From positions 15,315 through 79,314 of the forward strand of contig DDIM01000006.1 in assembly GCA_002338525.1 (NCBI GenBank): a DNA stretch of 64,000 nt, in the 5' to 3' direction. This DNA is from Micavibrio sp. UBA1850 (GTDB lineage Bacteria; Pseudomonadota; Alphaproteobacteria; Micavibrionales; Micavibrionaceae). A program made the position numbers and the translations under genes. Below the pieces are notes generated by a model, which was given only the letters and a program-made list of their open reading frames with translations, ran no database searches and was not told the origin of the DNA. The first letter of the stretch is position 1. Each line of letters starts with the position of its first letter. Positions 5,997 through 27,733 of the stretch are shown here, in pieces.

Positions 5997-6021
5997 CTAA
6001 AACCATGAAAAACCGTGAGGG

Positions 6022-9076: not shown

Positions 9077-9106
9077 GCCAGCAAACTTAAAGTGATAAAT
9101 ATAAAA

Positions 9107-9134: not shown

Positions 9135-9226
9135 GTGCAAAACGGTGGGTAGGTTGGCAAGCTTATTTGACAAAAGAATGTAAAATGTGGCCTAATGTTT
9201 TCATAATAAATGAAAGGTGTAAAAGC

Positions 9227-9646: not shown

Positions 9647-9669
9647 ATGGTTATAAAGAAAAGGTATTT

Positions 9670-10131: not shown

Positions 10132-10134
10132 AGT

Positions 10135-11925: not shown

Positions 11926-11937
11926 AATAATTCCTAA

Positions 11938-12288: not shown

Positions 12289-12300
12289 AAAAAAGCTCCC

Positions 12301-12693
12301 TTATGAAAACATACATGCACAAATCCATGTGCCTGCTGTGAGTATAATGGTAGAGGCTATAACAGCATAGCCAGCACGCTCTGCATGTTTAATCTTAAAT
12401 AATCGGCCTGTATCCCAAAATAGGTGACGGATCCCGTTGCTCAAATGATAGTAAATGCAAACTGTCCAACCAAAGAGCATGATTTTACCAATGATTGAGC
12501 TCGAAAAGTTAAAGAAAACATTATAAGCGTCTTCTCCCATATATGTCGCAAGAAGCATCCAGGCAACGTAAAGCAAACCAATGGCTAGCGCCGCGCCAGT
12601 TGCACGATGCGTGATAGACAAAACAGATGTCATTTGCGGTTTATAAACCTGAAGGTGCGGGGATAAAGGTCGGTCTTGCTCAGTCATTTTCAT
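12301..12693 (-). CDS. sdhC: Succinate dehydrogenase cytochrome b556 subunit
   Basis: RPLSPHLQVYKPQMTSVLSITHRATG is the classic SdhC N terminus. Three TM helices. Confidence 0.9.
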   Translation of the reverse strand: MKMTEQDRPLSPHLQVYKPQMTSVLSITHRATGAALAIGLLYVAWMLLATYMGEDAYNVFFNFSSSIIGKIMLFGWTVCIYYHLSNGIRHLFWDTGRLFKIKHAERAGYAVIASTIILTAGTWICACMFS

Positions 12694-12708
12694 TCCTTCA
12701 AACAGATT

Positions 12709-13755
12709 TTATTCGTCATCTATACTAGAGATTTCAGCTGGACTTTCAACGCCTAATATACTTTCTGCTATGCGCACTGAATTGTAAGCCGCCCCAGATT
12801 GTAAATTATCCATGACTGACCAATATGACAGGCTGTTATCTATACCTTCATTGGCACGAATACGGCTTAAGAAAACGTTTGTTTCTCCATGAATTTCAGA
12901 TGGTGTTACAAACTCCATTTCAGATTCCAAATCTATGATTTCAATGCCCTCAGACGCACGCCATGCCGCTTTGATGTCTTTTACAGAGATTGTGTCTTTA
13001 AACTGAACCGTAACCGACTGCCCGTGCCCTACGAAAACAGGCGTATAAACGCAAGTCGCAGCAACCTTGGGTTCGCTTTCCATAAGCGAGGCTGTTTCGG
13101 TTATAATTGCGTGTTCTGCGCCTGTTGCGTGATTATCTTCAAATCCACCCACCTGAGGGATCACGTTAAACGCAATATGTTTTGAAAAATGCTGTGTCTT
13201 TGGTTCTTGGTTCATGTAGATGGTGCGAACCTGATTAAACAGCTCATCCATTGCAGGACGTCCTACCTCAGACACTGAATGATATGTCGACACAGTAACG
13301 GTTTCAATTGTGCCAATTTCTTCTAACGCTTTTAACGTTGAGACCAGCTGAATGGTCGCACTAGAAGGTGAGGCAATGATTTTTGCCGTCTTGGACGGCG
13401 CATATCCCAGATCAGGTATGGCCAGTAATTTGCCGTCCGTGTCGGTCAAATCAATGATTTTTGCATCAGAGTTTTCGAGTTTTTGTATGATCTTTTTGGC
13501 AACATATTCTGTACCTGTCAAAAAAACGACATCAAAACCGTCCATGTTCATTGTGTCTGCATGGATCATTTGCAATGTATCATCACCAAAACTCATTTGT
13601 TTTAACTGATTTTTGTCTTCGCCTGCGATCTTAAGCGCGGATACTGGAAAAGAGCGCTCGTGCAGATGATTTAAAACTTCTTGTCCCAAAATGGTTTCGA
13701 CGCCAATGATGGCAACTTTATAAGAAGGTTGTTGTGTTGCAGTATTTGATGACAT
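12709..13755 (-). CDS. Aspartate-semialdehyde dehydrogenase-like protein with substituted catalytic and cofactor motifs
   Basis: Full-length similarity to the short (Bacillus/alpha) Asd type (STYHSVSEVG, AFNVIPQVGGF, VAATCVYTPVFVGHGQSV, DNLQSGAAYNSVRIAE). However, NPNCST is SPSSAT and GATGAVGQ is GVETILGQ. Confidence 0.7.
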   Translation of the reverse strand: MSSNTATQQPSYKVAIIGVETILGQEVLNHLHERSFPVSALKIAGEDKNQLKQMSFGDDTLQMIHADTMNMDGFDVVFLTGTEYVAKKIIQKLENSDAKIIDLTDTDGKLLAIPDLGYAPSKTAKIIASPSSATIQLVSTLKALEEIGTIETVTVSTYHSVSEVGRPAMDELFNQVRTIYMNQEPKTQHFSKHIAFNVIPQVGGFEDNHATGAEHAIITETASLMESEPKVAATCVYTPVFVGHGQSVTVQFKDTISVKDIKAAWRASEGIEIIDLESEMEFVTPSEIHGETNVFLSRIRANEGIDNSLSYWSVMDNLQSGAAYNSVRIAESILGVESPAEISSIDDE

Positions 13756-13820
13756 GAATGTCTTTCCTTTATAATTTTAGCGTTATTACAATGGTTTTAA
13801 ACATGTTAAGATCATTTGTC

Positions 13821-15761
13821 ATGTCGAAAAAAGAAGACCATACAGATAATCATAGCGCAGATGACGTAAAGTCAAACTTTCTGGCAACGATGAGCCACGA
13901 AATGCGAACACCAATGCAGTCTGTCTACGGTCTTTTGGAACTTATTGAGCTAGAAGATACCTCCGACCATGTCAAAGACATGGTAAGAATTGCGAAAGGC
14001 TCGGCCAGCTCCCTTCTTGAAATACTAGATGACGTGCTTGAGCTTTCAAAAATGGATGCGGGTAAGATGGAATTGGATGAATTTGAAATTCCTGTCCGCA
14101 CGCTTGTTCGTGGTGTTAACGAGGCGCTCAGTGTCCGCGTTAAAGAGCGTCCCGTTGAACTCGGCGATGATGTAAGTGACGAAGTGCCTGTTGTGATTAA
14201 AGGGGACCCCAAGCGCCTGAGGCAAGTTTTAATGAACTTGGTTGGTAACGCTTTAAAATTCACAGAAAAAGGCACGGTAAAAACGCTTGTCAAAACAAAA
14301 TCCAAAACGCCCTTAATATTAAGATTTGAAGTGCACGACACAGGAATTGGTATCACACAAGACGCTTGTGATGCGCTCTTTAGCCCTTTTTCTCAGGCCG
14401 ATAGCTCTACCTCACGTAAATTTGGTGGTACAGGGTTGGGGCTGTCTATTTGTCGCAAGCTTGTTGAACTTATGGGCGGCGATATTGGTGTAGAGAGCGT
14501 TTTAGGTGAGGGGACTATATTTTGGTTTGAAATTCCCACTGTTGAAATTGACGCGCGGCAATCTGATCTCGAACTGCCTAATCTTGATGGGCTTTACGTT
14601 TTATCTGTGGAAGATCATCCACAAGGTGCAAAAGAAATTGTAAGCGCGCTCAGCTCAATGGGCGCACAAGTTGAAAGCTGCTCTAATATTGAGGACGCAC
14701 GTAAATTATCTGCAGAGCGGCCTTTTGACGTTGCCATTATCGATCAGGGGTTACCTGATGGTGATGGGCTGACATTGCTTAGACGCTTGTTGGATTTATA
14801 TCCCTTCATGGGCTGTGTGATGTATACCGCGCGCGAAGATGTTGGCCTTAGAAACTCTCTTGGAACATTAGGCGTTTCATATGTCACAAAACCAGCAAGT
14901 CGAAAGGGTTTGGGCGAGGCCGTTCTTGATGCGGCTCAAAAATCAAATTGTAAAAACAAAAGACAAGATATGAAAGAGGGCACGCGTTTGATTATTGCCG
15001 ATGATACGGCAAGTATCCGTGACCTCTTCTCTCGTCAGCTTAAATCTTTAGGCGTTGAGTGCGATATGGTGGCAAATGGTCACGAGCTTTTATCTGCGAT
15101 GAAGAACCGCTCATATGATCTCGTGATTACCGATCTTCATATGCCCGAATGCGATGGCTATGATGTGATTGAACAAATCCGCATGACAGAGCAGGGCAGA
15201 AATAACGATGATCAGGTCAAAGATCACCAAAGCGTTGTTTTATTAACCGCGGACATACAAATGGCAAACCGCCAAACATACAAACAACTCGGGTTTGATG
15301 AATGCCTCTTAAAGCCTGTGACATTGGGACAACTAAAAAGGCTTTTGATACGGTGGGGAATTTTAGATGACGCGCGTCCCTCTGTCTCATCCCCAAAAGG
15401 CTTTGTAGATCAGGGCGAAAGTGACGCAATTGATCTTAAGGCATTGGAAAGGCAACTTGGCGCCATTGATGAAATGGCAATTGAGATGCTCTCCAGCTTT
15501 ATTGAAATGACAAAGCCTTTGATTAATAAGCTCGTTATCGCCTTAAAAAACGATGACATTCATAGTATCAAGCAAACGGCACATTCATTAAAGGGAAGTG
15601 CCCGATCGGCAGGAGCTGTCGTGCTTGGCGATATCGCCTATGAAGTTCAAGAAACCGCAGAAAAAGGAAATGCAATTCATAAGGATATCATAGAAGATAT
15701 TATTGCCGAATTTGACCGTGTGAAAGAACACGTGAAGACAATTGAAGCTTTAAATAAATAG
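13821..15761 (+). CDS. Soluble hybrid histidine kinase: HisKA-HATPase-REC-REC-HPt, with no sensor domain
   Basis: H box FLATMSHEMRTPM lies only ~30 aa from the start. N/G boxes are NLVGNALKFT, HDTGIGI and GGTGLGLSICRKLVELMGG. Two receiver domains (VAIIDQGLPDGDG...TKP; LVITDLHMPECDG...LKP). C-terminal HPt is AHSLKGSARSAGA. The start is the internal ATG at 13821. Confidence 0.85.
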   Translation: MSKKEDHTDNHSADDVKSNFLATMSHEMRTPMQSVYGLLELIELEDTSDHVKDMVRIAKGSASSLLEILDDVLELSKMDAGKMELDEFEIPVRTLVRGVNEALSVRVKERPVELGDDVSDEVPVVIKGDPKRLRQVLMNLVGNALKFTEKGTVKTLVKTKSKTPLILRFEVHDTGIGITQDACDALFSPFSQADSSTSRKFGGTGLGLSICRKLVELMGGDIGVESVLGEGTIFWFEIPTVEIDARQSDLELPNLDGLYVLSVEDHPQGAKEIVSALSSMGAQVESCSNIEDARKLSAERPFDVAIIDQGLPDGDGLTLLRRLLDLYPFMGCVMYTAREDVGLRNSLGTLGVSYVTKPASRKGLGEAVLDAAQKSNCKNKRQDMKEGTRLIIADDTASIRDLFSRQLKSLGVECDMVANGHELLSAMKNRSYDLVITDLHMPECDGYDVIEQIRMTEQGRNNDDQVKDHQSVVLLTADIQMANRQTYKQLGFDECLLKPVTLGQLKRLLIRWGILDDARPSVSSPKGFVDQGESDAIDLKALERQLGAIDEMAIEMLSSFIEMTKPLINKLVIALKNDDIHSIKQTAHSLKGSARSAGAVVLGDIAYEVQETAEKGNAIHKDIIEDIIAEFDRVKEHVKTIEALNK

Positions 15762-15793
15762 GTGAAAATTTAAACAAATAAGCTTTGTTTTTA

Positions 15794-16519
15794 TTATGGG
15801 CAATCTACAACATCGCCGTGGTTTGTCGCGCTATCAATAATCATCCAGACCCGAAAACAACGGCTCCCTGACGGACATTCTCTCACGCTTGAATCGCCTA
15901 TGGAGTCGCTTGATAGCGCAACATCACCAGATGTTGCATCAATGATATCAGCTTCACATTCACTAAATTTGTCATCCACTTTTTCTAACGCGGTTCGTAA
16001 AAAGGGGTCACTTTTATCCGTTTGAATAAAAAAGAAAACGCCGTCATCACCATTATAATATTCCCAATCTTCAAAAAGACTTGGAGGTTGGGGAAGAAAT
16101 TTACCAGATGAGCCAGAGAATAAAAAAGAATGGTCAGGATCAGAGCCACCGGGATTTCCAGGGCAGCGAATGTTTGAAACATTATTATCACTAGCCGAAC
16201 CGTCAGTCGCCCCTTCATCATCAAAATAGGAATCGGCGGGGTTAATCGGGTAGGGGCTATGCTTTTGCTCGTCTGATGTCAGGCCGTTATCTTCGGAAGG
16301 ATACAGAAGGACACATTCTTGAATGGCTGATTGTATTAATGAGGCTTGATTATAAATGTCGGATACAACGCGAGTGCTGTTTTGATTTTGTGATTGCTGC
16401 CCAGACGGCTCCATGAAACTAACCGTTAGCGCCGCAAGTAACGCAATCGCAATCAAAATATAGACAAGCGCGCTTCCAGAAGCGTTATCCTCTCTATAGT
16501 TTGATCCAAATTTACTCAT
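15794..16519 (-). CDS. Pilin-like protein B (class-III-signal-like N terminus, non-canonical), 241 aa
   Basis: Charged leader ending ...NASG, then SALVYILIAIALLAALTVSF. The globular part is D/S/G-rich with 6 Cys. AGGA lies 6 nt upstream of the ATG. It is the same length as the upstream paralogue. Confidence 0.5.
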   Translation of the reverse strand: MSKFGSNYREDNASGSALVYILIAIALLAALTVSFMEPSGQQSQNQNSTRVVSDIYNQASLIQSAIQECVLLYPSEDNGLTSDEQKHSPYPINPADSYFDDEGATDGSASDNNVSNIRCPGNPGGSDPDHSFLFSGSSGKFLPQPPSLFEDWEYYNGDDGVFFFIQTDKSDPFLRTALEKVDDKFSECEADIIDATSGDVALSSDSIGDSSVRECPSGSRCFRVWMIIDSATNHGDVVDCP

Positions 16520-16550
16520 TACTTATCCTGTTATCTTTATCCCATGTGGC

Positions 16551-16578
16551 AAAAAAGGCGATCTCAGCCGCCTTTTTT
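16551..16578 (-). terminator. Weak hairpin with flanking A/T runs between the two pilin-like genes (possible attenuating terminator)
   Basis: AAAAAAGGCG-atctcagc-CGCCTTTTTT. The GC stem is short but has T runs on either strand. Confidence 0.35.
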
Positions 16579-16601
16579 ATTAAATCTACACTCTTTAGCT
16601 C

Positions 16602-17327
16602 TTAGTTTTCGCTAAGGACGTGGTAGTAATAATTCACACCACCTTGAACAAAGCATCCAAATGATTGGCCGTTAAGAACTGATCCTCCACTGGCTCCAAT
16701 TGTGTCACCATTCGCGGAGACAACACCAAGAGCGTTAGAACCATCACCGTCCTGAAATGTTGTGACATCTATACCAGTTTCTGTAGGAGGCGCGCCAATC
16801 CCTAATTCTTCATGAATTTTATTACAAATACCGTCTCTAACATTTGGTAGAAACGCTATAACTTCTACATCAGAAGATGTCGGCGTTGTCTCAGTCGATG
16901 GATTTGAACCAATATTGTGAACACTGTTTTCTCCATTAAATACCCATGCGCCTGAGCTGCCTGATGTGACGACGTCATTTGGAGCATTCTGGTGAGAGGC
17001 TGATCCGCCGCTGCTACCAAAAACACACGCATCTGGGTCGATATCTTCACAATTATCTATATCTGAAGGAGGGTTAAACATTAGCTCGTCATCACCAATA
17101 CCACCGCTAATTGACATTCTTAGAATTGACGTCTTCAAAGATGCTGGGTACTGCGTAAGGGACGCACTACTAATAAGGCTTGTTTCATCATCTGCGTTAC
17201 CTCCACCACGTGTGGATTGTGTCACAGCATAAGAAAGTGCTGCAAACAGGGCAACGGCAATCAAAATCAAGAACAAGACGTTCCCTCTTTCATGCTCCCG
17301 TGTTGACTTTTGTGTTGTACTTTCCAT
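16602..17327 (-). CDS. Pilin-like protein A (candidate major subunit), 241 aa
   Basis: Leader MESTTQKSTREHERG, then NVLFLILIAVALFAALSYAV. G/S/T/D-rich globular part with 4 Cys. Strong SD AAGGAG 6 nt upstream of the ATG. Confidence 0.5.
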   Translation of the reverse strand: MESTTQKSTREHERGNVLFLILIAVALFAALSYAVTQSTRGGGNADDETSLISSASLTQYPASLKTSILRMSISGGIGDDELMFNPPSDIDNCEDIDPDACVFGSSGGSASHQNAPNDVVTSGSSGAWVFNGENSVHNIGSNPSTETTPTSSDVEVIAFLPNVRDGICNKIHEELGIGAPPTETGIDVTTFQDGDGSNALGVVSANGDTIGASGGSVLNGQSFGCFVQGGVNYYYHVLSEN

Positions 17328-17369
17328 ATCTAACTCCTTTTGGTTTCCCTAGATCTTGTTTTTGCTGTT

Positions 17370-17891
17370 TTACTGAACGCTGACTGTGTTTAAAGCAACA
17401 ACAGCGTTTAATTTATTACCTTTGCATTCGCGCCCGACACACAATGTCTCTATTGAGGCAACCCATCGTCTATCTATATTGGCAACATGCCCGAGAGCCT
17501 CTCTAAATTGACTGTATGTCTGTAATTCTTGACCACTAAGCGTAACCTGATTCTGTTTAGTTTCAAAGTTCAAACTAGGGTAAACCTTTTTTAAAGTATC
17601 AACTTTTTTCTTGAGCGCATCGTTAGAAACGCTCGAAGTTTTTATATTCGGGATCTTAGGTTGAATGGCGGCCTTTTCAGAGAGCTCGGACTTAATACTC
17701 GCAAGCTCTTTAGTTTGCACCATGGTGTAAAGACCTAACGCAGCAACAACCGCCCATACCACACCAACCGTGATAAGGGCTGTCTTCCCAACATGGTCAG
17801 GAAGAGACTCTAAAAACTTGTTTAGGTCTTGACTGGCCCCTGGCTTTAAATATTTAGCAAGCTGGGAAAAATTAAAGTCTTGTGCGCTCAA
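17370..17891 (-). CDS. Bitopic assembly protein, GspM/PilO-like (173 aa)
   Basis: Short cytoplasmic N terminus, one TM helix (TALITVGVVWAVVAALGLYTMV), then a coiled-coil-like stretch and a small periplasmic domain. The call rests on position and topology only. TTG start. Confidence 0.35.
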   Translation of the reverse strand: MSAQDFNFSQLAKYLKPGASQDLNKFLESLPDHVGKTALITVGVVWAVVAALGLYTMVQTKELASIKSELSEKAAIQPKIPNIKTSSVSNDALKKKVDTLKKVYPSLNFETKQNQVTLSGQELQTYSQFREALGHVANIDRRWVASIETLCVGRECKGNKLNAVVALNTVSVQ

Positions 17892-18024
17892 TTTAAGCTC
17901 TTTTCCATTCTCATTCTACGTTTGTGTCTTCTAATAACTCTTATATTATACATCAAACACTATTAACAAAATTTTAATAAAAATGTAGTGAATGCGCCAC
18001 AACTATTTATTAAATATAATTTTT

Positions 18025-19116
18025 TTATGATTTTCCTCTAATTCTCATTCTTGTGGGGCCGGCCTGATTGTCATCTATAATTTCAACATTTCTAAACTGA
18101 TTACGAATGCTATTGAGGTCCTGAGCAGGAACAAGTGCTTCCCATGTGACGGCCGATTTATTAATCTCGTATTTGACAAGCGTGCCACTGATGTCAGAAA
18201 GATCACTCAAAAGCTCTTGAATGCGCGCATTATGAGTGATGATATCACTATGCATGGCCTTATATGAATTTTCGATCAGCTTATTCGTTGCTTGCTGGGT
18301 TTTAAGTTCAACGTCACTCAGGTCATTTTGTGAAAATGTTAAAGACACCATATCAATTAAAAGCACGGTAATTAAGATAAGCACAATGCCCAAGCCTGAA
18401 AACAAAAGTGTACGCGTGAGGGCTCTTGCCAATTTTTCAGTGCGAAGTTGAATGTTGCGCCATGGAATAACATGCGGGTTATCTTTACCAATTGTCACAA
18501 AGTTTGTATCCATACTTTGAATTTTTGGCAAAATTGTTCGGCTTCCTCCAATGAAGAGTTGAACGCGACCCGTCTCATCGTTCCATCGTAGCGCCGCAGT
18601 ACTAGCGTCTTGTTCGTAAACATAAACCGTTTGCTTGTCGATAAATTCAGGATTCCCAGGAAGCGCAGCAACAAGGGGGCACCAGCTATCTGGCGCTGAT
18701 GTTAATGTCGACGAAGGACAGGCAATATAGGTGACTTTTTCTTCAGCCAAATCCACAGTATAGGAAAAGTGAACCTTCTCTGTGGCACAAGCCTGCGAGG
18801 CAGCGTTCCACACGGCCTCAACTTCCATCCCAACAACGTATGGAACTTCTCCTGCAATAAGCTCTATGGGAAGGTAAGGGGTCAGTTCATCCTTAAAATC
18901 GCTGACCTCGCCTGCAATATAGTCTGCAATCGAGGGCTTAACACTTTGAGGAGTAATACTTTCCGCTGCAGGTGTCGCAAGACCTTGAGGTTGTTCTGGC
19001 TCACCGAACGTAGGCTGCATTTGATCATGAGCAAGAGGCTCTTTCTTGCCCGTTAATTTGGCAATAAAGTTTTTTGCTTTTTTTGCAAACATTTGCTGTT
19101 TTGATTCCAACGTCAT
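18025..19116 (-). CDS. Bitopic assembly protein, GspL / fused PilM-PilN-like (363 aa)
   Basis: ~225-aa cytoplasmic part, a single TM helix (LLFSGLGIVLILITVLLIDMV) and a ~110-aa periplasmic part. Its start overlaps the platform gene stop (TAATG at 19114-19118). Confidence 0.35.
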   Translation of the reverse strand: MTLESKQQMFAKKAKNFIAKLTGKKEPLAHDQMQPTFGEPEQPQGLATPAAESITPQSVKPSIADYIAGEVSDFKDELTPYLPIELIAGEVPYVVGMEVEAVWNAASQACATEKVHFSYTVDLAEEKVTYIACPSSTLTSAPDSWCPLVAALPGNPEFIDKQTVYVYEQDASTAALRWNDETGRVQLFIGGSRTILPKIQSMDTNFVTIGKDNPHVIPWRNIQLRTEKLARALTRTLLFSGLGIVLILITVLLIDMVSLTFSQNDLSDVELKTQQATNKLIENSYKAMHSDIITHNARIQELLSDLSDISGTLVKYEINKSAVTWEALVPAQDLNSIRNQFRNVEIIDDNQAGPTRMRIRGKS

Positions 19117-20336
19117 TAAAGCGCGCCTTCCATAAGTCCACCCATCATACTGTCCATACTAACGTTCATCACGGTCAAAGCATAGATCGCACTACCAAAC
19201 GCAAGTGCAAGATAAGCCCCGGTGAGAACAAACGCCAGCCAAACAATGAGTTTGTGTTTTGTCCGAGAGGATTGCGTTCGCATTTCTGCAATCGCATCCA
19301 TAATAGTAGCAACCTGATCAAGATCCGACAAGGTCGCAAGTTCTAAACGCTCTGCCCGCGTCAAAGGAGGTTTATCAAGGGCCGACCCCAAATTAATACC
19401 GCGAGAGAGTTGTTCAACGGCATTTGTCCAATATTGGGAAACCTCGGGCACTGTTGTTGCGTTTGCAGATTCTTCCAAAGCATCAATAATAGACACCTTT
19501 CCTTTAATCATACGAGAGGCCGCCGCCATCGAGTCAGAGAAACCAAGGTCTCGTAAATATCCACCAATAAGAGGGATTTTCCTAACCATACGCGCCGTCG
19601 GCCAGTCTTTTTTACCTCTGTTAATGATATAAGAAAATACAGCCCACGCCATAAACGCACCCATGGCAAAAGCAAAGTAAATCAAAAGATCCCACGTCAG
19701 CTGAAGATTACCAACCACGCGTTCAAACTTCTCAAGCTCGGCAGGGTCTGTCGGTTTGTTATCCATAAACCAATCAATAATCATGCCTTTTCCCCAAAAA
19801 AGGGATTGCACGATGGTAAAAACGTCAAATCCTAGCCATGCGAGTGTCCCCATAATCGCCTGATTGTTTTTACGTTTTTGTGTAATCGACTGAATGGCAT
19901 GGGGAATACCTTCATATAGCTTATTGGCGCGCTCACTGGCCGACAAAATAGAAAGCGTCCCATGGTCAAAAATGTTTAGGGCTTTGAGCGCGTCAATCGC
20001 ACCTAAGCCTCTTGATAACGCTTCACGGGCAGGCGCTAGAATATTCTGGCGACGCGGGCTTGTCTCAGACTCGATAAGATTCCAAAGGGCAACACCAGGA
20101 GACGTTGATGACGAGCGGAATTGAATACCGCGCAAAAGTTGAACCTGCCACCAGCTAGAGCGTGCTAAAATACGCTCCAAGGGTGTGCGTTCATGTTGAC
20201 GGATGTTGAGGACATAGCCCCCCATATTTTCAACAGCAGTACGCACGTCTTGACGCGTAGGAAGGTAAAAAGATTCCTCCCTCGTGATCACGCCACGGCG
20301 ATTTTGAAATGCGATTTCAACAATCCACTGCTGCAT
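19116..20336 (-). CDS. GspF/PilC-family inner-membrane platform protein
   Basis: 406 aa with two repeats of a helical cytoplasmic domain plus TM segments. IPLIGGYLRDLGFSDSMAAASRMIKGKVSIIDALEE...LSRGINLGSAL resembles the T2SSF repeat. Confidence 0.65.
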   Translation of the reverse strand: MQQWIVEIAFQNRRGVITREESFYLPTRQDVRTAVENMGGYVLNIRQHERTPLERILARSSWWQVQLLRGIQFRSSSTSPGVALWNLIESETSPRRQNILAPAREALSRGLGAIDALKALNIFDHGTLSILSASERANKLYEGIPHAIQSITQKRKNNQAIMGTLAWLGFDVFTIVQSLFWGKGMIIDWFMDNKPTDPAELEKFERVVGNLQLTWDLLIYFAFAMGAFMAWAVFSYIINRGKKDWPTARMVRKIPLIGGYLRDLGFSDSMAAASRMIKGKVSIIDALEESANATTVPEVSQYWTNAVEQLSRGINLGSALDKPPLTRAERLELATLSDLDQVATIMDAIAEMRTQSSRTKHKLIVWLAFVLTGAYLALAFGSAIYALTVMNVSMDSMMGGLMEGAL

Positions 20337-20364
20337 ACTGTGTCAAATCCCTTCCTTAGTTAAT

Positions 20365-22149
20365 CTACGAGTCAAGATATGAGATTGCAGAAACAGGATC
20401 GACCAAGCCACTAACGACAAGATCAACAAGACCGCTTTGTCTCGTGTAGCTGTGTACACCATCCTGCTTCACAATATTATTAACGTTACTCATTAATGCT
20501 TCAAAAATCTCGTTTCTCTCTGAAGGGCCAAGATTGATCGTCAAGGCATCCAGCAGCAATGTTCGTCCAGCAATACCCGTTCTGTTGCAAAGTTCACACC
20601 CAGACGAGTTTTGCCTACGGATCATTGTTTCTTCAGGAATATTAAACGTTTCAAGCATAGTCGGCGGCAACACATCACCAATACGGTCGCGGTGCGCACA
20701 TGCTTGGCAAAGCGTCTTAACCAATCTCTGGTTCATTATACATCTAACTTGCTGCGCAAGCGTAAAAGTTGATGAACGTTCACGATCGGTCGGCATCAAA
20801 GATTTCAAACGTTCAAATGTTTGAAGGGCGGTGTCGGCGTGAACAGTTGAAATAACTGTGTGACCAGATTCCGCTGCTTTTAACGCCGTTTCCACAGTGT
20901 CCATATCACGAAGCTCCCCGATGATAATATAGTCAGGGTCGTGACGCATTGAGGCGCGAATAAGATCAGAAAATCCACCTCCGGGCATTCCCGGGCGAAC
21001 TTGCCACTGTGTGGCATAACGAAGTTCATATTCAATAGGGTCTTCAATGGTCAAAACGTGGCGACGGCGACGATCAATTTCTTGAATACACGCATACATC
21101 GTCGTTGTTTTACCAGATCCCGTCGGGCCGGATAAGATGATAAGACCACCACCCCCCTTAATCTCAGGAGACAAAAGCCTTTGTAATGTCCCGCCGACCT
21201 CTTCATGACGTTTAAACAATTCGTTAAAGCCACGTAGTGAAGCACGGTCAAGAAGACGCATTGTTATCTTCTCACCATCTTGAGCTTGCGGGCCTGCGGC
21301 AACACGCACATCAATCATACGGCCTTGCCATGTAAAACTAAAACGGCCATCTTTAGGTGTGACGCGGTCACCAAAGTTCATGCCCGCATCACGTTTAAGA
21401 AGTGTTGTTAATCGCGCCATGGCATCATTAGGAAGCAAGTGCATCGGCAAAACGTCACCATCAATACGGTAACGAATCCAGTTTGGCGCATCCGGATTGT
21501 TATCTTGCACGAGGTGAATATCTGACACACGAAGTTGTAAAGATTCCGCCATCATATCGCGCACAAATTGATTAAGTAGCAATCCGTTATCAACATCGGC
21601 CAGCCACTCTGCCAAGGTTTTTTCACAACGCCCTGTTGAAAGGTCTCGCACCGAGCGAAGCGTTCTTAAGAGTTCCTGCCTGTCCCAAATTTCAATTTCG
21701 AGGCGTTCAACATAAAATCCTGTTCTATTCGCAGCAGATACAAGAAGATCGATTTGTTTTTCGTTCAACTCGTCAAGGGGCGCCACTTTCAAAACCCCCT
21801 CAGACAAACCAATCAAATGAATATTGAGAGGGAGCCAATATTGCACAGGCAGGTTAGAGCGAAGCGCATCCCCTGTTGCAGAATATTTTGTGCCTTCTTG
21901 TTCGTCTGATTTGTTTGGAGCTGATGCCCCTGCAATATCGAGCAATTGCTCGGTCGACATTGATTTTCCTTGGCTCAGGAACATATTACGCTCACGCTGA
22001 ACCATATCAAGGTAGCGCTCGCGCCCATCATACGCGATTAGGCGACGGTCAGGTTCCTTACGACGTTCCACACCGTTTTGAGGACCAATGTTGACCTTAC
22101 GACGATCGGCGCCTGTACGCTGCGGATCATTATCAACGTTTTCATTCAT
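20365..22149 (-). CDS. GspE/PilB-family secretion ATPase with Arg-rich N-terminal extension
   Basis: Walker A SGPTGSGKTT, Asp box, Walker B IIIGELRD, His box TVHA, tetracysteine CQAC...CELC, and a T2SSE_N-like segment (GVLKVAPLDELNEKQIDLL). Confidence 0.9.
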   Translation of the reverse strand: MNENVDNDPQRTGADRRKVNIGPQNGVERRKEPDRRLIAYDGRERYLDMVQRERNMFLSQGKSMSTEQLLDIAGASAPNKSDEQEGTKYSATGDALRSNLPVQYWLPLNIHLIGLSEGVLKVAPLDELNEKQIDLLVSAANRTGFYVERLEIEIWDRQELLRTLRSVRDLSTGRCEKTLAEWLADVDNGLLLNQFVRDMMAESLQLRVSDIHLVQDNNPDAPNWIRYRIDGDVLPMHLLPNDAMARLTTLLKRDAGMNFGDRVTPKDGRFSFTWQGRMIDVRVAAGPQAQDGEKITMRLLDRASLRGFNELFKRHEEVGGTLQRLLSPEIKGGGGLIILSGPTGSGKTTTMYACIQEIDRRRRHVLTIEDPIEYELRYATQWQVRPGMPGGGFSDLIRASMRHDPDYIIIGELRDMDTVETALKAAESGHTVISTVHADTALQTFERLKSLMPTDRERSSTFTLAQQVRCIMNQRLVKTLCQACAHRDRIGDVLPPTMLETFNIPEETMIRRQNSSGCELCNRTGIAGRTLLLDALTINLGPSERNEIFEALMSNVNNIVKQDGVHSYTRQSGLVDLVVSGLVDPVSAISYLDS

Positions 22150-23669
22150 TACTGATCACTTGTGTTTGTCGTTGTCGTTGTCGCTGCACCGCCCGAAGAT
22201 GAGCCAGTAGAAAGAGAGCGGTCAAACAACAGATTTATCTTATCGCTACCGTTTTTAAACTCTATGCCTGCAGATGTGATGCGCACATCCCACTCTACAC
22301 CGCCAATGACAACAGATTGTTTGTCTTTGACAATACGGCTTCCGCCAGGACCGACGATAATAGCTTTTTGTCCTGAGTGTGAGGTAATTGAAAAACCAGA
22401 TAAAGCATCCAATTTGCGGTAATTCTTTTCAACAACGCCGCCGCGTTCGACAATTGCCTGAGAATCTTTACTGACCGCTCGTGTGGCTTCGCCTCTCACA
22501 GGAACAACAAGAACACCACGCGCCCCGTTATGAACAATTTGAAGATCGTCAAAAATTGCACCTTCACGCACAGGTACCCAACGAAGGGTAAGCGGGCAGG
22601 CTTCTATAGGGCGTAGGATGGCGCCTTCTTGGCACCCTCTGTCCAAAATAGACAGCCCATTGTCAGTGCCTGACAAGTCTATGTCATGTATTGTTAGATC
22701 AGCATCACCGACATTTACCAATGATAGTGATATTGTTGACTCATTTTCGATACCACTTTCAAAGTCTATCTCGTCTTGTGTCGAAACCATCAAGCCACGA
22801 CCTGGAACAGCACTAGGGAAGACTTCTGCAATGTCGGATTCTTCTGGGTCAAACTCACCAGTTAGTGGAATGCTGGCAATGCGAGACGATCCTGAATGTT
22901 CTACAACAATAACAGCGTCTGCTTGACCTGATTGTTGTGGTGCCCATGTTACCGTAGCCAAACAAGCCTCACTTGGATTCAAATCACCACAATCATGGTC
23001 AAGTCTGTAACCAGATTGAGAGGCGGCTGCAATACGCACATTTTTAACCGATAATGGCGTCGCTGTGACGTTTCTGAAAACGACAGATTTGATGAGCGGT
23101 TGGCTTGACGAAAGACTTCCAAAGTCAATTTCATTTGGAATGGCCTCAATGTCACTTAGCACGTTTTGGTTATCTGTGGAGCTTGATTCAACGTCACCAG
23201 CCACCGCCGCAGACGTGATTTGTGAACGTCCATCATTTTGCACAAGCATCGATACGCGCCACGCCCCTGTTTGCAATCCCTTTACGCTAATGACAATAGG
23301 ACATTCTGCTCCGGGAGGCAGAGGCACGTCCTTACATTCGTTTAACTCTACTGCAGCAGAAATTGTAGAAGAGGGGTATAGCTTCACATCCCCAATTTGT
23401 ATAACCCGACCACCATCGTTTCTAAACAACGTAACGACCTGCCCCGTTGATCCCAAGGCAATTTCACCGCCATCAAATTCTTCTTCAACGGGTGTTAAGA
23501 CGCCGGCAGCACCCCCGCCACTAACGGCAATACCTGGATCGAAAAAACCAGAAGACGCATGAGCTGATGTAACGAATGGGGACGTCAATATAACGGTCGA
23601 CAGGCATAATAAACCTATAGATTTTATGGATCCCAATGCCGCCGATTGTGAAAAATTATACCATGTCAT
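22149..23669 (-). CDS. Secreted protein with three ASH / choice-of-anchor-D-like Ig repeats and a PilP/GspC-HR-like C-terminal domain
   Basis: Signal peptide ending SAHA. Three ~110-aa repeats each carry a Cys pair (NECKDVPLPPGAECPIVISV; HDCGDLNPSEACLATVTW; RGCQEGAILRPIEACPLTLRW). The C terminus KAIIVGPGGSRIVKDKQSVVIGGVEWDVRITSAGIEF is PilP-like. The stop overlaps the ATPase start (TAATG). Confidence 0.5.
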   Translation of the reverse strand: MTWYNFSQSAALGSIKSIGLLCLSTVILTSPFVTSAHASSGFFDPGIAVSGGGAAGVLTPVEEEFDGGEIALGSTGQVVTLFRNDGGRVIQIGDVKLYPSSTISAAVELNECKDVPLPPGAECPIVISVKGLQTGAWRVSMLVQNDGRSQITSAAVAGDVESSSTDNQNVLSDIEAIPNEIDFGSLSSSQPLIKSVVFRNVTATPLSVKNVRIAAASQSGYRLDHDCGDLNPSEACLATVTWAPQQSGQADAVIVVEHSGSSRIASIPLTGEFDPEESDIAEVFPSAVPGRGLMVSTQDEIDFESGIENESTISLSLVNVGDADLTIHDIDLSGTDNGLSILDRGCQEGAILRPIEACPLTLRWVPVREGAIFDDLQIVHNGARGVLVVPVRGEATRAVSKDSQAIVERGGVVEKNYRKLDALSGFSITSHSGQKAIIVGPGGSRIVKDKQSVVIGGVEWDVRITSAGIEFKNGSDKINLLFDRSLSTGSSSGGAATTTTTNTSDQ

Positions 23670-23780
23670 GTTCTCTACCCGTTTTAGTGCCCGTAATGCT
23701 TTGTATTGTTGTATACCCTAATAGTATAAATCAAAAATGTTTCTCGTTCGTTACCATTGCCCCATATAATTGCTGGTGCA

Positions 23781-25658
23781 TTAAAAAACAGGCCTTAAGG
23801 GCACATAGTTTTCTGGGTTTTCTGGCTCTTCAGTATCTTCGTTTGAAATATTATTGGCTGGTACGTCAAATAAAGGTGTCGGTGGGTCTATCTCTACACG
23901 CTCGATAATGACAGGCGCATTGGCTGTCTCTCTCATAGGCGCCTTAATTGGTTTTGCGACCATGGGGGCTTGCACAACGGGCGTATCAGGAGATAACGGC
24001 TGAACAATGACCTCATCTTCAGAAATCACCTCTTGAGCGCGCGGCTGTTCTTTAGACTCTTGAACCTCGTAAGTATCCTTAATAATGACGGTTTCTTGCG
24101 CAGGCTGGACTATTGATGGTGAAACTTCAGCAACAGGGGCTGGAACATCAACACTAACTTGTTTTAAAAACTGGGCGGCTGCTTTTTCAGAGGCAAGCTT
24201 TGCCTCACGCTTCATAGAAATCATTTCAGCCTCAGATGGTGTTGTATAAACAACAACACGCGGGCGAAGCAGGAACACAAGCTCAACATTTGACGTTTGT
24301 GCTGTTCGGCTTGATGGGAAAAGGGGCTCTTGAATACCCGGACCTGATTTGTCAAAATTGTCAATTTCGCGCACAAGACCGGCAATCAACAAAGAATCTC
24401 CCGGGCGGATACGAACTTGGGTAGAAAGTTCACGCTCGGTTGTTTGTGGCAACTGAACAATCGCATCAGGGTTGTCATCAAATGTATCGATGGCACGTAC
24501 CTCTTGAAGCAAAATATCAATATTACCGTATACAGTTGCTTTGTCCCAACTAGAGGCAATATCAAAAGTAAAACCAGTGTCGACGGAATCTGTTTGTGTT
24601 GACACGGTGACTTCGCCTTGGTCAACTGAACGAGAAATTTCAGACACATAGTTTTGAGTGTCTGCAACACGGAAACGAGCATTAGATCCTGATAGAACGG
24701 TAACCTGTGGCTGAGAAATCGTTTTAACAGCTCCATATTCGGAAATAAACTGGAAGACATTATCTCCATCAAATGCCACACCGTTTGTTGTCGGTAACCC
24801 AATACTCACAGGCGTTCCAAGAGACGGATCAGGCACACCTTCTAAGTTGATGCCCAGCTGATATTTACCAAAATTATCAATACTATCCCAATCAATACCC
24901 GTTGAATTTCCAGAGTTAAGCGAAACTTCCCAAATGTAGGTTTCAAATATAATCAGGGCTGTGTTTGATCTAAGGCGCTGAAAATAGCTGTCTGCAACTT
25001 CAGATGTACGGTTTGAGGCGCGGTAGACAAGCGTGCGTGTCGCCTCATCAGTAATAGGTGTTGATCCTACAATTTCTTCAAGAGCAGCAGAGACCCCCGT
25101 TAAAAACTCGTTGTCTTCACCAATTGGGGGCAACGTTACTGTGAATAGCTGCGTGTCTTTTACAACGAGCATGCCATTTTCAAACGAGCAATATAAATCC
25201 GCCAAGCTGCAAACACGAGATACGATGAACTCCAGCTCGCCTTTTAAATTTGTGATTGTAATTGTGCGCTCAAGCCCTTCTGAGCTTTCAAAGGCAATAG
25301 GAATATCAGTTTCGTCCAAAATCAACTGCAAGGCGCCGCCCAATGTCTCACCGCGTAGCTCAAAAGGGCCAACAATCTTTTTTGGCAAAACATCAGATTT
25401 TGCAATTTGCGGAACAAGAATATCATCGCCAAGAGGTAAGTACATAACAGCATCCGGACGTTCGTTGACCGCACGTTTACGTTCTTGTGCAAATTGAGGG
25501 GCGGGGATGTTAACGTTGCGCGTGTCTGGTGCAAAAACTTGTGCGCAAGACCCTAAAAACATAGAGCTTGATGCGACAAGGCCCAATAGGGCGCCCCCAG
25601 ACAATATCCGAGAGAAGAGGGGGGGCTTTAACTGTGTTTTATAATTTTTTAAGGCCAT
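23781..25658 (-). CDS. Secretin-family outer-membrane lipoprotein (T4bP PilN/BfpB/TcpC-like) with Pro/Glu-rich C-terminal tail
   Basis: Lipobox FLGSC. Secretin core KTISQPQVTVLSGSNARFRV...IRPGDSLLIAGLVRE...ELVFLLRPRVV. There are ~154 extra C-terminal residues. Confidence 0.8.
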   Translation of the reverse strand: MALKNYKTQLKPPLFSRILSGGALLGLVASSSMFLGSCAQVFAPDTRNVNIPAPQFAQERKRAVNERPDAVMYLPLGDDILVPQIAKSDVLPKKIVGPFELRGETLGGALQLILDETDIPIAFESSEGLERTITITNLKGELEFIVSRVCSLADLYCSFENGMLVVKDTQLFTVTLPPIGEDNEFLTGVSAALEEIVGSTPITDEATRTLVYRASNRTSEVADSYFQRLRSNTALIIFETYIWEVSLNSGNSTGIDWDSIDNFGKYQLGINLEGVPDPSLGTPVSIGLPTTNGVAFDGDNVFQFISEYGAVKTISQPQVTVLSGSNARFRVADTQNYVSEISRSVDQGEVTVSTQTDSVDTGFTFDIASSWDKATVYGNIDILLQEVRAIDTFDDNPDAIVQLPQTTERELSTQVRIRPGDSLLIAGLVREIDNFDKSGPGIQEPLFPSSRTAQTSNVELVFLLRPRVVVYTTPSEAEMISMKREAKLASEKAAAQFLKQVSVDVPAPVAEVSPSIVQPAQETVIIKDTYEVQESKEQPRAQEVISEDEVIVQPLSPDTPVVQAPMVAKPIKAPMRETANAPVIIERVEIDPPTPLFDVPANNISNEDTEEPENPENYVPLRPVF

Positions 25659-25753
25659 TCCTACATACTTCTTATTTCTTCATTATACTCTAAAATTATC
25701 ACGTTTGCCATGCCACTTATTAATGTACACGCATTATCCCCTTAATTTGGGCT

Positions 25754-26110
25754 TTAACTTGGTACTGATCGTGCGACCATCTTTAAAAGTCTGTCTTTTT
25801 CAACGGGTTTCATTAATGTCGCCTTTACCCCAAATGCTGATGCTTCACTTAAAAGATCCGGGCTTTGATCTCCGGTAATAAAAATAACCGGCGTTTGATT
25901 GTTTTTTGATCGTAATGACTTTACAAACTCGATGCCGTCTACAGGCTCCATGCGAACGTCAATGATGGCCAGCTTAATGTCATCTGTCATTGAGTTGAGG
26001 GCCGTTAGGCCATCAGTCGCCTCAACAACCTCATACCCGTCGGCTGTTAAGAAGCGATTGATTTGCATTCTGACGAAATCATTATCTTCTGCGAGAAGAA
26101 TTTTAGACAT
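25754..26110 (-). CDS. Single-domain CheY-like response regulator
   Basis: 118 aa. ILLAEDND, LAIIDVRMEPVDG and ATLMKP are the receiver signature residues. Confidence 0.9.
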   Translation of the reverse strand: MSKILLAEDNDFVRMQINRFLTADGYEVVEATDGLTALNSMTDDIKLAIIDVRMEPVDGIEFVKSLRSKNNQTPVIFITGDQSPDLLSEASAFGVKATLMKPVEKDRLLKMVARSVPS

Positions 26111-26152
26111 GTGAAACTCTGTGTTTGTTTATTTGTTTTTTTTGTGCGGCAT

Positions 26153-26172
26153 TGTTACCGGAGTTGGTAACA
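26153..26172. promoter_or_regulatory. 7-bp inverted repeat TGTTACC-N6-GGTAACA in the divergent RR / prepilin-peptidase intergenic region (candidate operator)
   Basis: Perfect arms at 26153-26159 and 26166-26172, 43-62 nt upstream of the response-regulator start. Confidence 0.25.
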
Positions 26173-26314
26173 GTATATGCGAATCGTTAAAAATCCATTT
26201 AACATCGTACACGCATATATAAATATGTGTAAACAATTATTTCTGTTGGTTTTTATGCCTGTTTGCTTATTATCCGCTTGATCTTATATGGTTTAGGCCG
26301 TAGCGTTCTGAACC

Positions 26315-26824
26315 ATGGATTTTGTTTTAATGCTTTCGGCTTTTTTTAGTGTTGCTACCGCTCTTGTTTTGCTGGCAACGCTTGCTGTTATTGATTTCAA
26401 AACAATGTACCTCCCCAATATTTACGTTTTTCCGTTTGCTGTGCTTGGCGTTGTATTCCATGTGTTAACAGGCTTTACGCTCATTTCATGCCAGGATATG
26501 CTGGTAGGGGCTGCATTTGGGTATGGCGTTTTGTGGTTAATACGATTTTTTGGCAACATGTACTACAAAACGGATTCCTTAGGCTTGGGCGACGTTAAGC
26601 TTATGGGGGCGGCTGGATTATGGCTTGGGTTCGCCAGTGTAACAACGGCGCTGACATTAGGGGCTGCTGCGGGGCTGTGTCATGGATTAATCGTTGCGTA
26701 TTTCAACTCAAGAAAAACAGGATCGTTTAATATTCAGCGCCTAAAAATACCCGCCGGACCCGGTTTTATCATCGGGATCACGATCATGATCATCATTGAT
26801 ATTTTTCCATATTTTACGAGGTAG
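26315..26824 (+). CDS. Short A24-family prepilin peptidase (no N-terminal methyltransferase / Zn domain)
   Basis: 169 aa, polytopic. AVIDFKTMYLP and LGLGDVKLMGAAGLWLG carry the two catalytic Asp motifs. Confidence 0.85.
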   Translation: MDFVLMLSAFFSVATALVLLATLAVIDFKTMYLPNIYVFPFAVLGVVFHVLTGFTLISCQDMLVGAAFGYGVLWLIRFFGNMYYKTDSLGLGDVKLMGAAGLWLGFASVTTALTLGAAAGLCHGLIVAYFNSRKTGSFNIQRLKIPAGPGFIIGITIMIIIDIFPYFTR

Positions 26825-26827
26825 GCC

Positions 26828-27733
26828 ATGAAACATTTATTGGATATTCAATCAATCGAGGTGGGTGATATTCACCAGATACTAAGTCGCGCAAAAGATT
26901 TTAAAGACGCTTTGGCCTCGGGTCGCTCGTGCGAAGATATTCTTTCGGGAAAAGTGATCATCAATATGTTTTTCGAAAACTCGACGCGCACATTAACCTC
27001 GTTTCAAATGGCTGCTTATCGATTAGGGGCACAAGTCATTAACTGGCAGGTCTCATCAAGCTCTACGAAAAAGGGCGAGACATTTTCGGATACAATGGAA
27101 TGCGTTGCAGGCTATCATCCAGATGCAATTGTTGTGCGTCATGAAGAGTTTAAGGCGCCTTACACAGTCAAAAAAATTGTGGATTGCCCCGTCATAAACG
27201 CGGGTGATAGCTGGCGTGCGCATCCATCTCAGGCTCTTTTGGATGTCTTTACGATGCAGGAAAACTTAGGCGATATAGCTGGTAAAACGATTGCAATATG
27301 TGGTGATGTGGCACATAGCCGCGTTGCCAGCTCAAATGTTGAGATATTAGGCAAGCTAGGGGCGCGTGTGCATATAGTTGCACCCGATAGCCTGCTTCCC
27401 AACATGTCAAAACACACCCATGTTGAAACGTTCAATAGTTTAGAAGATGGTTTGGTGGGGTGTGATGTTGTGATGATGTTACGCAATCAAAAAGAGCGCA
27501 TGGAAGCAGCAGACGTGCCTGATGATGTCGAGTATTTCCATGCGTTTGGCTTAACGCAGGAGCGCTTGGCGCGCGCAAATGAAGACGCGTTTGTGATGCA
27601 CCCGGGGCCCATGAACCGAAACGTAGAGATTGCAGACGATGTCGTCGATGATCCCGTAAAATCAAAAATATTTGAACAAATGGCCAATGGCCTACCTGTT
27701 CGTATGGCCATTTTTGAATGGGCCTTAAAGTAA
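26828..27733 (+). CDS. pyrB: Aspartate carbamoyltransferase catalytic subunit
   Basis: FFENSTRTLTSFQMAAYRLGAQV, HPSQALLD and HPGPMNR motifs. Confidence 0.95.
   Translation: MKHLLDIQSIEVGDIHQILSRAKDFKDALASGRSCEDILSGKVIINMFFENSTRTLTSFQMAAYRLGAQVINWQVSSSSTKKGETFSDTMECVAGYHPDAIVVRHEEFKAPYTVKKIVDCPVINAGDSWRAHPSQALLDVFTMQENLGDIAGKTIAICGDVAHSRVASSNVEILGKLGARVHIVAPDSLLPNMSKHTHVETFNSLEDGLVGCDVVMMLRNQKERMEAADVPDDVEYFHAFGLTQERLARANEDAFVMHPGPMNRNVEIADDVVDDPVKSKIFEQMANGLPVRMAIFEWALK

Follow-up and report, generated by a model that had tools for sequence, protein, structure and literature searches.

A predicted type IV filament system of a separate lineage, conserved across Micavibrio-like bacteria and related to cassettes of conjugative plasmids

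What does a compact operon build when it encodes the assembly machinery of a type IV filament (T4F) and matches no named filament class? This question is raised by a locus of Micavibrio sp. UBA1850 (contig DDIM01000006.1), which we studied in a 64-kb stretch of DNA, hereafter the window, whose positions serve as coordinates. According to the list of open reading frames (ORFs), nine genes point in one direction on the minus strand between 15794 and 26110. They are flanked by the divergent gene of a 169-amino-acid (aa) A24 prepilin peptidase (26315-26824) and by the convergent gene of a 667-aa kinase (13758-15761). A first-pass annotation had proposed this set of eleven ORFs, which were all recovered with the same coordinates and strands, and two TAATG stop/start overlaps, which are indeed present on the minus strand (19118-19114 and 22151-22147). 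It had also described the locus as a mosaic of known classes. To judge from the sequences, the locus is a genuine T4F system in a separate, undescribed lineage of the known superfamily, and we see an even chance that it specifies an extension-only pilus for contact with prey.

Pfam identifies 7 of the 11 proteins. It bears out the domain identities first proposed for the CheY-like regulator, the secretin, the T2SSE ATPase, the T2SSF platform, the A24 peptidase, and the hybrid kinase, and matches the ASH/HYDIN Ig protein as well. The GspE/PilB-type assembly ATPase (20365-22149, minus strand; 594 aa; Pfam T2SSE, 256 bits) keeps Walker A at residue 341, the Asp box at 369, Walker B at 408, and the His box at 428, all intact. 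Its tetracysteine motif is strictly kept, as two CxxC motifs are found in 80/80 orthologues. Orthologues, here and below, come from the best 80 of 224 ATPase relatives found by scanning one genome per GTDB species. Among PDB sequences, the ATPase scores 177 bits against GspE, 146–159 against PilF/PilB, 83 against BfpD, and 44 against CpaF. Its N-terminus is Arg-rich: residues 1-60 (21970-22149, minus strand) show no Pfam match, and carry the motifs GG(V/I/L)ERR, (D)RRK, and EGRERYLDMVQRER conserved across the Micavibrio orthologues.

The GspF/PilC-type inner-membrane platform (19116-20336, minus strand; 406 aa) is very divergent. Its match to Pfam T2SSF is marginal (26.4 bits for a gathering score of 25.2) and covers the C-terminal half only (residues 274-387), while its size and its place beside the ATPase are consistent with the GspF/PilC family. 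By BLASTP it scores 30 bits against GspF, compared with 413 bits against the platform of L082, one of the related cassettes described below. The short peptidase (plus strand; Pfam Peptidase_A24, 69 bits) has no methyltransferase domain. Its catalytic D27 and GLGD93 are kept in 67/67 orthologues, and a dedicated A24 peptidase always adjoins the operon in related loci. A PilB/GspE-family ATPase, a GspF/PilC-family platform (with a marginal score), and an A24 peptidase, three of the traits by which the superfamily is recognized, are therefore all encoded here. Judged by domains and motifs, the T4F machine is complete, every catalytic and structural component of its core being present, intact, and strongly conserved.

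The secretin (23781-25658, minus strand; 625 aa; Pfam Secretin at residues 306-469) ends in a variable Pro/Glu-rich C-terminal tail. It had been proposed to be a lipoprotein, and a lipobox of the form [LVI]-x-[GSA]-C is found in 53 of 72 orthologues; no lipobox match was obtained for the remaining 19, which are taken as truncated start calls, one of them (L001) having been inspected. Among NCBIfam models, the secretin reaches 100 bits against MshL (cutoff 250) and 68 bits against the type IVb (T4b) PilN family (cutoff 288), and its sole match among PDB sequences is BfpB (40 bits). In a neighbor-joining tree, it is placed outside the group of BfpB and PilN.

The proposal that the locus fits no canonical class agrees with the NCBIfam class models, which all score far below their cutoffs. 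The ATPase obtains 225 bits against PilB (cutoff 676), 222 against GspE (630), 189 against ComGA (300), and 56 against the TadA family (373); the secretin 31.5 against GspD (351); and the platform 22.7 against GspF (424) and 25 against ComGB (240). We found no description of the system in the literature, and the sole Micavibrio system listed in the portion of the supplements of Denise et al. accessible to us is a Tad system. Conversely, the features that the first-pass annotation cited as hallmarks separating the classes (the lipoprotein secretin, the peptidase without methyltransferase domain, and the GspL/M-like bitopic pair) are not class-exclusive, and the best curated match of the lipoprotein secretin is the MSH protein MshL. 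As for the parts noted as missing, the window holds no PilT-type gene and there is no GspG-K or PilMNOP set, but these absences say little, because in Micavibrio aeruginosavorus ARL-13 PilT, full-length PilD, and canonical prepilins are encoded elsewhere in the genome, in a cluster resembling type IVa pili (T4aP; GMV_1530-1544, with two PilT genes). This strain also has a Tad locus (GMV_527-539).

Compared with T4aP systems, the locus shows no match to PilM, PilN, PilO, or PilP, no PilT-type gene or canonical prepilin in the window, and a peptidase reduced to its A24 domain. With Tad/Flp systems, which have a role in contact-dependent predation by other predators, it shares a short A24 peptidase without methyltransferase domain, like TadV/CpaA. 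It differs from them by its GspE/PilB-type ATPase, by one two-domain platform protein instead of TadB and TadC, and by the absence of Flp, TadE/F, TadZ, and RcpC. With Com systems, it shares neither ComGA and ComGB scores above cutoff nor ComEA/ComEC neighbors. MSH systems (Vibrio MshI-Q) provide the best curated secretin model, at 100 bits well below its cutoff. However, none of the eleven genes is of the MshM or MshN type, no RLGxxLL-type MshEN motif was read by eye in the N-terminus of the ATPase, and a peptidase is present. According to Denise et al., the MSH model requires MshM and MSH loci are without peptidase; on this definition, we reject an assignment to MSH because MshM and MshN are lacking and a peptidase is encoded.

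If the locus belongs to no named class, does it have relatives elsewhere? Relatives of the ATPase were sought exhaustively among 1.8 billion representative proteins. The nearest ATPases beyond the Micavibrio group are 42% identical (517 and 486 bits) and the following ones 35–40% identical (∼310–350 bits). These scores of 310–517 bits contrast with the 146–177 bits obtained with solved GspE and PilB-family sequences. Identity to the window ATPase is 33–36% for relatives from plasmids and 37–42% for metagenomic relatives. A plasmid collection yielded two related cassettes. One lies on the conjugative megaplasmid RPME01 of Methylibium petroleiphilum PM1 (L085; NC_008826, 361252-370107), another on the conjugative plasmid of Rhodoferax ferrireducens T118 (L090; NC_007901, 159397-172194), where it is preceded by a response regulator gene. 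Cassette L083 (Logan SRR29476910_19107, 7799-19518) encodes a secretin, an ATPase, a platform, the bitopic proteins L and M described below, and five pilin-like proteins. It is nested in a conjugative VirB-type type IV secretion system (T4SS) operon, between virB9/CagX and VirB10/TrbI, and is followed by genes for VirB11 and a coupling protein. Cassette L082 encodes a secretin, an A24 peptidase, a 409-aa protein, an ATPase, a platform, proteins of 341 and 175 aa, and two pilin-like proteins, and cassette L084 a secretin, a 386-aa protein, an ATPase, and a platform.

The plasmid and metagenomic cassettes share with Micavibrio the order secretin, small periplasmic protein, ATPase, platform, L, M, and pilin-like genes. 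They differ in being mobile and not core, in a higher number of pilin-like genes (four or five), in additional large proteins encoded downstream, and in genes that are all annotated as hypothetical. Hidden Markov models of Micavibrio L, M, and the two pilin-like proteins pil1 and pil2 match the corresponding genes in L082, L083, and the PM1 (L085) and Rhodoferax (L090) plasmids. In the Escherichia coli gsp, enteropathogenic E. coli (EPEC) bfp, and Burkholderia R64-like loci, profiles of L, M, the Ig protein, pil1, and pil2 match nothing, except for a borderline 12-bit match of pil2 to the N-terminus of GspK.

For each of three core proteins (ATPase, platform, and secretin), we built a neighbor-joining tree (100 bootstraps), taking the Burkholderia R64-like locus as T4b reference. 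In all three, the window and its relatives are on one side and the Gsp/Hof and Bfp/R64-type references on the other, with bootstrap values of 61, 99, and 88, respectively. None of the proteins groups with these references, and the trees reveal one lineage and no mixture. Because the three core proteins group with the same uncharacterized relatives, and because these relatives carry the same private set of L, M, and pilin-like genes in the same order, the locus forms one coherent lineage and the mosaic reading has to be abandoned.

Several of the related loci have features of their own. In L082, the two pilin-like genes are directly followed by the gene of a 704-aa protein (16062-18176) with a Peptidase_S74 domain (endosialidase chaperone, tail-spike type), which may be a tip fiber or an adhesin. 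The VirB10/TrbI protein of L083 itself bears ASH/HYDIN Ig domains. On the PM1 plasmid, two tandem genes upstream of the secretin gene (L085, 5607-6629) encode proteins of 146–154 aa with a leader, a Gly, and a hydrophobic N-terminus. One of these proteins, for which the Micavibrio locus has no counterpart, is annotated as a cell fusion protein, and both are possible major subunits of this cassette. The Rhodoferax locus (L090, 7848-23335) has two tandem secretin genes, a gene for a PPIase-domain protein among its pilin-like genes, and an adjoining PRTRC cassette, and a protein of >890 aa encoded downstream shows no Pfam match. L081 (JGI 3300022697, 5193-9662), apparently an AT-rich, alphaproteobacterium-like contig, encodes the nearest ATPase from beyond the Micavibrio cluster (42% identity). 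This ATPase is accompanied by a secretin and a 214-aa protein only, with no platform gene adjacent. A match on a Methylobacterium plasmid was discarded, as it is a lone ATPase gene without other cassette genes beside it. Among the nearer ATPase relatives, tandem double ATPases are also found: many proteins of ∼1,000 aa contain two T2SSE stretches (P0259, P0262, P0264, P0266, and P0268-P0272).

Four genes of the operon, at 18025-19116, 17370-17891, 16602-17327, and 15794-16519 (L, M, pil1, and pil2, respectively), have no meaningful match in Pfam or NCBIfam. L and M, both encoded on the minus strand and predicted to be bitopic assembly proteins, each have a single transmembrane segment. The AlphaFold2 (AF2) model of L (predicted local distance difference test score [pLDDT] 85) consists of an alpha/beta domain in the cytoplasm, a single, very long helix combining the transmembrane segment and a coiled coil, and a small periplasmic domain of beta-beta-alpha-beta-beta type. 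Foldseek relates this model to PilM, the PulL-PulM C-terminal complex, EpsM, and PilO, with matches that are all weak (E of 0.05 or worse). These fold matches weakly agree with a GspL/PilMN-type role of L without proving one. M (173 aa) combines a conserved cytoplasmic DLN-FLE-LP motif, a transmembrane segment at residues 33-60, and a periplasmic CVGREC motif. Neither protein matches any PDB sequence, and hhalign gives probabilities of <1% for L with E. coli GspL and for M with E. coli GspM; across E. coli GspL, GspM, GspC, and BfpC, the best value was 11%, for BfpC, and none is usable. Among the matches listed in a profile search for distant L homologues, all belong to the Micavibrio family. 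Of the GspL-like and GspM/PilO-like labels first given to these proteins, the bitopic architecture and the weak fold matches of L therefore stand, but no similarity in Pfam, NCBIfam, PDB sequences, or hhalign accompanies them.

The gene between those of the secretin and the ATPase encodes a periplasmic Ig protein (22149-23669, minus strand) with a signal peptide, three Ig repeats of the ASH/HYDIN type, and a conserved C-terminal domain (approximately residues 410-490). Each repeat carries an invariant pair of Cys. The Pfam matches of the protein are ASH, HYDIN_VesB_CFA65-like_Ig, and DUF1573. The three repeats described earlier are thus real, but the “PilP-like end” that was attached to them is an architectural label without support from Pfam, NCBIfam, PDB sequences, or hhalign. 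The profile of the protein matches no PDB sequence, and hhalign gives a probability of <1% with E. coli GspC. The C-terminal domain is the portion conserved in distant relatives. It is all that the 214-aa protein of L081 keeps, and Ig repeats were not detected in the counterparts from L081, L083, PM1, and Rhodoferax. The L082 and L084 counterparts each align with two separate stretches of the profile, which we read as fewer Ig repeats. The Ig protein is a candidate link between platform and secretin.

What would such a machine assemble? The two last genes of the operon encode pil1 (16602-17327, minus strand), the candidate major subunit, and pil2 (15794-16519, minus strand), a candidate minor or tip subunit, both of 241 aa. 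Each consists of a basic leader of variable sequence and length (∼8–27 residues) ending in Gly, one N-terminal hydrophobic helix, and a globular part, with a predicted mature form of ∼225 aa. In pil1, the leader ends in E-x-G and is followed by NVLFLILIAVALFAALSYAVTQS. The 23 residues after Gly15 are almost invariant among the orthologues listed while the leader varies, and outside the helix the protein is ∼47% identical to the window protein across the order. In pil2, the Gly is followed by the helix SALVYILIAIALLAALT, and the alignment then shows FMEPSSQQ and six conserved Cys. As far as sequence comparison can tell, this pattern of conservation is that of type IV pilins, and the N-termini resemble class III signal peptides. 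At the same time, these proteins are unusual. As first noticed, no G-F/M-T-L-I-E motif exists in any frame of the whole 64-kb window, and pil1 and pil2 match neither N_methyl nor any other pilin model of Pfam, nor, by profile, any PDB sequence. Neither helix contains an acidic residue, so that Glu5 is missing, and Phe is not found at position +1. Glu5 is likewise absent from the pilin-like proteins that were inspected in L082, L083, and PM1, and those tested from PM1 and Rhodoferax contain no known pilin domain. The AF2 model of pil1 (pLDDT 86.5) shows a transmembrane helix, a Gly-rich break, a 31-residue helix, a four-stranded sheet, and two invariant Cys. The pil1 family comprises ∼3,000 sequence clusters; among the 120 best matches, all the named ones are hypothetical proteins and none has a Pfam domain. 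Homologues of pil2 are present in the plasmid-borne relatives.

These subunits bear on the possibility that the locus is a fast-evolving member of an established class, T4b pili (T4bP) or MSH, whose accessory proteins have diverged beyond sequence recognition. T4bP such as EPEC BFP, the R64/IncI thin pilus, and the PAPI-1 type share with the locus a lipoprotein secretin, long leaders (10–25 residues), a residue other than Phe at +1, large subunits, a compact operon with its own peptidase, and a link of relatives to mobile elements and conjugation that recalls R64. The secretin also has MshL and T4b PilN as best models and BfpB as sole PDB sequence match. However, the ATPase and platform are not nearer to BfpD/BfpE or PilQ/PilR than to Gsp/Hof: the ATPase scores 83–102 bits against BfpD and 86 against R64-type PilQ, compared with 169–182 against GspE/HofB, and the platform has no BLASTP similarity detectable to R64-type PilR. 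There is no sequence counterpart of BfpC/U, PilO2/PilP, or TcpQ, the bitopic genes follow the platform gene instead of preceding that of the ATPase, and the accessory profiles match nothing in bfp or R64-like loci. The MSH variant is opposed by the lack of MshM and by the presence of a peptidase, and both variants by subunits without Glu5. We thus regard membership in either class as unlikely.

The chromosomal setting of the locus is that of an old component of the genome. The remainder of the window is made up of housekeeping genes (sdhA, aspS, asd, pyrB, plsY, dprA, topA, rnr, ftsZ, and rpoD), the base composition of the locus is unremarkable, and the locus is part of the core chromosome, not an island. 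The best 80 of the 224 ATPase relatives are 70–84% identical to the window protein and all come from metagenome-assembled genomes. Although labeled as Micavibrio, Alphaproteobacteria, Rhodospirillales, Pseudomonadota, Bdellovibrionales, or Pseudobdellovibrionaceae, we read them as a single Micavibrio-like group, a lineage of obligate epibiotic predators. A survey of gene order in these genomes found the arrangement dprA-plsY-pyrB-peptidase / response regulator-secretin-Ig protein-ATPase-platform-L-M-pil1-pil2 / kinase-asd to be fully shared by 39 of the 80 loci. Almost all others are pieces of the same order ended by contig edges, and gaps or local differences are confined to four; in every long contig, order and flanks are unchanged. 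The mean identity to the window proteins across the group is 73% for the ATPase and 70% for the platform, compared with 51–55% for pyrB, dprA, and plsY and 40% for asd. This synteny and the conservation of the ATPase and platform above that of neighboring housekeeping genes indicate that this core locus is old, has been inherited vertically, and is strongly constrained. The locus is not unique to its source genome and is core to the whole Micavibrio-like group sampled.

The conserved vicinity of dprA, ∼1.5 kb from the peptidase gene and in the same synteny block in related genomes, could point to a competence pseudopilus devoted to DNA uptake. Secretin-dependent T4F machines do take up DNA in many diderm bacteria. 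However, the locus has no ComEA, ComEC, or ComF gene, the ComGA score (189 bits for a cutoff of 300) is lower than those of PilB and GspE, and the plasmid relatives have no dprA nearby. As dprA belongs to a housekeeping block on the opposite strand (pyrB, plsY, dprA, and topA), its adjacency looks incidental, and we consider a competence function highly improbable.

Is the locus expressed, and when? The expression table of M. aeruginosavorus ARL-13 contains an orthologous block, GMV_1929-1939, with the same order and flanks and with pyrB, dprA, and topA next to it. In this table, transcription is expressed as a gene expression index (GEI) for the attack and the attachment phase. GMV_1929, the counterpart of the kinase gene, is annotated as a kinase. 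The genes corresponding to pil2 (GMV_1930; GEI 1.8 and 4.1), pil1 (GMV_1931; 9.9 and 53.8), M (GMV_1932; 2.6 and 3.8), L (GMV_1933; 10.8 and 9.5), the platform (GMV_1934; 3.7 and 5.1), and the Ig protein (GMV_1936; 2.8 and 9.5) are all annotated as hypothetical. Those of the ATPase (GMV_1935; 0.8 and 3.2), the response regulator (GMV_1938; 0 and 2.7), and the peptidase (GMV_1939; 0 and 1) are annotated as a type II/IV secretion system protein, a response regulator, and a type IV leader peptidase. The locus is thus transcribed, most of its genes rise in the attachment phase, and the highest value is that of the pil1 orthologue in this phase, 53.8.

Such a rise would also suit a secretion machine resembling the type II secretion system (T2SS; Gsp/Eps/Pul), in which a short periplasmic endopilus would drive folded hydrolases or toxins out by way of the secretin and deliver them onto or into prey cells at attachment. 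Micavibrio must deliver many hydrolases, and the ARL-13 genome paper (Wang et al.) described a “functional” T2SS without GspC, G, H, and K, dispersed pil genes, and secretion genes that rise in the attachment phase. GspE is the best-scoring solved protein for the ATPase, which shares its type of tetracysteine Zn motif; the order secretin-x-ATPase-platform...L-M, with two bitopic proteins after the platform, resembles gspD-E-F...L-M; and the operon has no retraction ATPase, as in T2SSs. However, Pfam and NCBIfam recognize no GspC or GspG-K here and no GspL or GspM family member, L and M being unrelated in sequence to the latter two. The GspD and GspE models score far below their cutoffs, and the secretin can hardly be aligned with GspD, or the platform with GspF. 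The two subunits, of ∼225 aa once mature and without Glu5, are far larger than a GspG-type endopilin, and the peptidase is devoid of a methyltransferase domain. Furthermore, the closest relatives are found on conjugative elements, where an adhesive pilus has a precedent and secretion has none. We therefore regard a T2SS-like function as somewhat doubtful, though as a serious competitor of the pilus reading.

An adhesive contact pilus is favored instead because the relatives are located on conjugative plasmids and in a T4SS operon, because the subunits are large, and because pil1 is already expressed while prey is sought and rises at attachment. T4b thin pili are a precedent for a pilus on conjugative elements. 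We propose that the short A24 peptidase would cleave the variable basic leader of pil1 and pil2 after the conserved Gly (Gly15), without N-methylation. The Zn-finger GspE/PilB-type ATPase would then drive the divergent GspF-type platform, held together with it by the lineage-specific L and M. According to this model, pil1 would polymerize as the major subunit and pil2 would act as a minor, priming, or tip subunit. The fiber would pass the Ig protein, a putative bridge to the secretin, and exit through this self-anchored lipoprotein, assembly being presumably gated by the hybrid kinase and the CheY-like regulator. As there is no dedicated retraction ATPase, the fiber is probably extension-only. 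Its likeliest role would be to contact other bacterial cells or adhere to them: attachment to prey in Micavibrio and mating-pair contact for the plasmids.

Several points weigh against this proposal. No filament has been seen. Glu5, or any acidic residue in the helix, is absent from all subunits, and Glu5 is required for assembly in characterized bacterial systems. Foldseek finds no solved structure similar to the pil1 model in the PDB, hence no solved pilin, and the N-terminal helix of this model is broken by a Gly-rich loop, unlike that of known pilins. The D-x-E-F...L-M order and the Zn-finger ATPase recall the T2SS, and Wang et al. counted the T2SS-type genes of Micavibrio as a secretion system up-regulated on prey. 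The role in adhesion rests on context and on one RNA-seq data set, for which replicates are not shown, and the orthology of GMV_1930-1939 is deduced from order, lengths, annotations, and flanks, not from sequence. Finally, the trees are small and distance-based, with no MSH, Tad, Com, or archaeal references.

The regulatory genes on either side may connect the system to a phosphorelay. The first gene of the operon encodes a single-domain CheY-like response regulator (25754-26110, minus strand; Pfam Response_reg, 84 bits), found at the same place in 70 of the 80 related loci, the absences coinciding with truncated contigs. Its probable phosphorelay partner is the soluble hybrid histidine kinase (13758-15761, plus strand), whose Pfam architecture is HisKA-HATPase-REC-REC-Hpt. 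Its gene was detected in 50 related loci and occupies this convergent position in 49 of them. With two receiver domains and an Hpt domain, this kinase has no transmembrane segment and no recognizable sensor domain before HisKA. The divergent intergenic region (26111-26314) is presumed, by its position only, to contain the promoters. Scans for sigma-54 and sigma-70 consensus sequences gave matches not above chance, and an Rfam scan of 15000-27500, covering for example c-di-GMP riboswitches, gave none. A candidate CtrA box in this region was rejected, as its spacing is N8 and not N7, and no TTAA-N7-TTAAC exists in the window or in 67 orthologous intergenic regions. Further away, among the housekeeping genes, a 453-aa ORF (4635-5996, plus strand) has no Pfam match at an E value of 1e-5 or better.

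A broader scenario can be offered tentatively, and we think it doubtful as a whole. The locus might represent a seventh bacterial T4F class, with unmethylated, Glu5-less subunits of a new fold, a Gly-rich hinge in their N-terminal helix, and its own L and M as alignment proteins. This class would have originated or spread as a pilus with which conjugative elements make mating contact; its later fixation in the ancestor of the Micavibrio-like group would have provided a prey-docking organelle essential for epibiotic predation. Independently of this scenario, the locus adds four protein families without described relatives, and surveys based on pilin hidden Markov models would probably miss such systems. 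A lineage of subunits without Glu5 and, as predicted, without N-methylation challenges the accepted view of subunit register in the filament core, and the presence of the cassette on conjugative plasmids and in a T4SS operon hints at a type of mating pilus that has been overlooked. For Micavibrio, the locus, present group-wide and expressed before and during attachment, is a concrete and testable candidate for the recognition and holding of prey.

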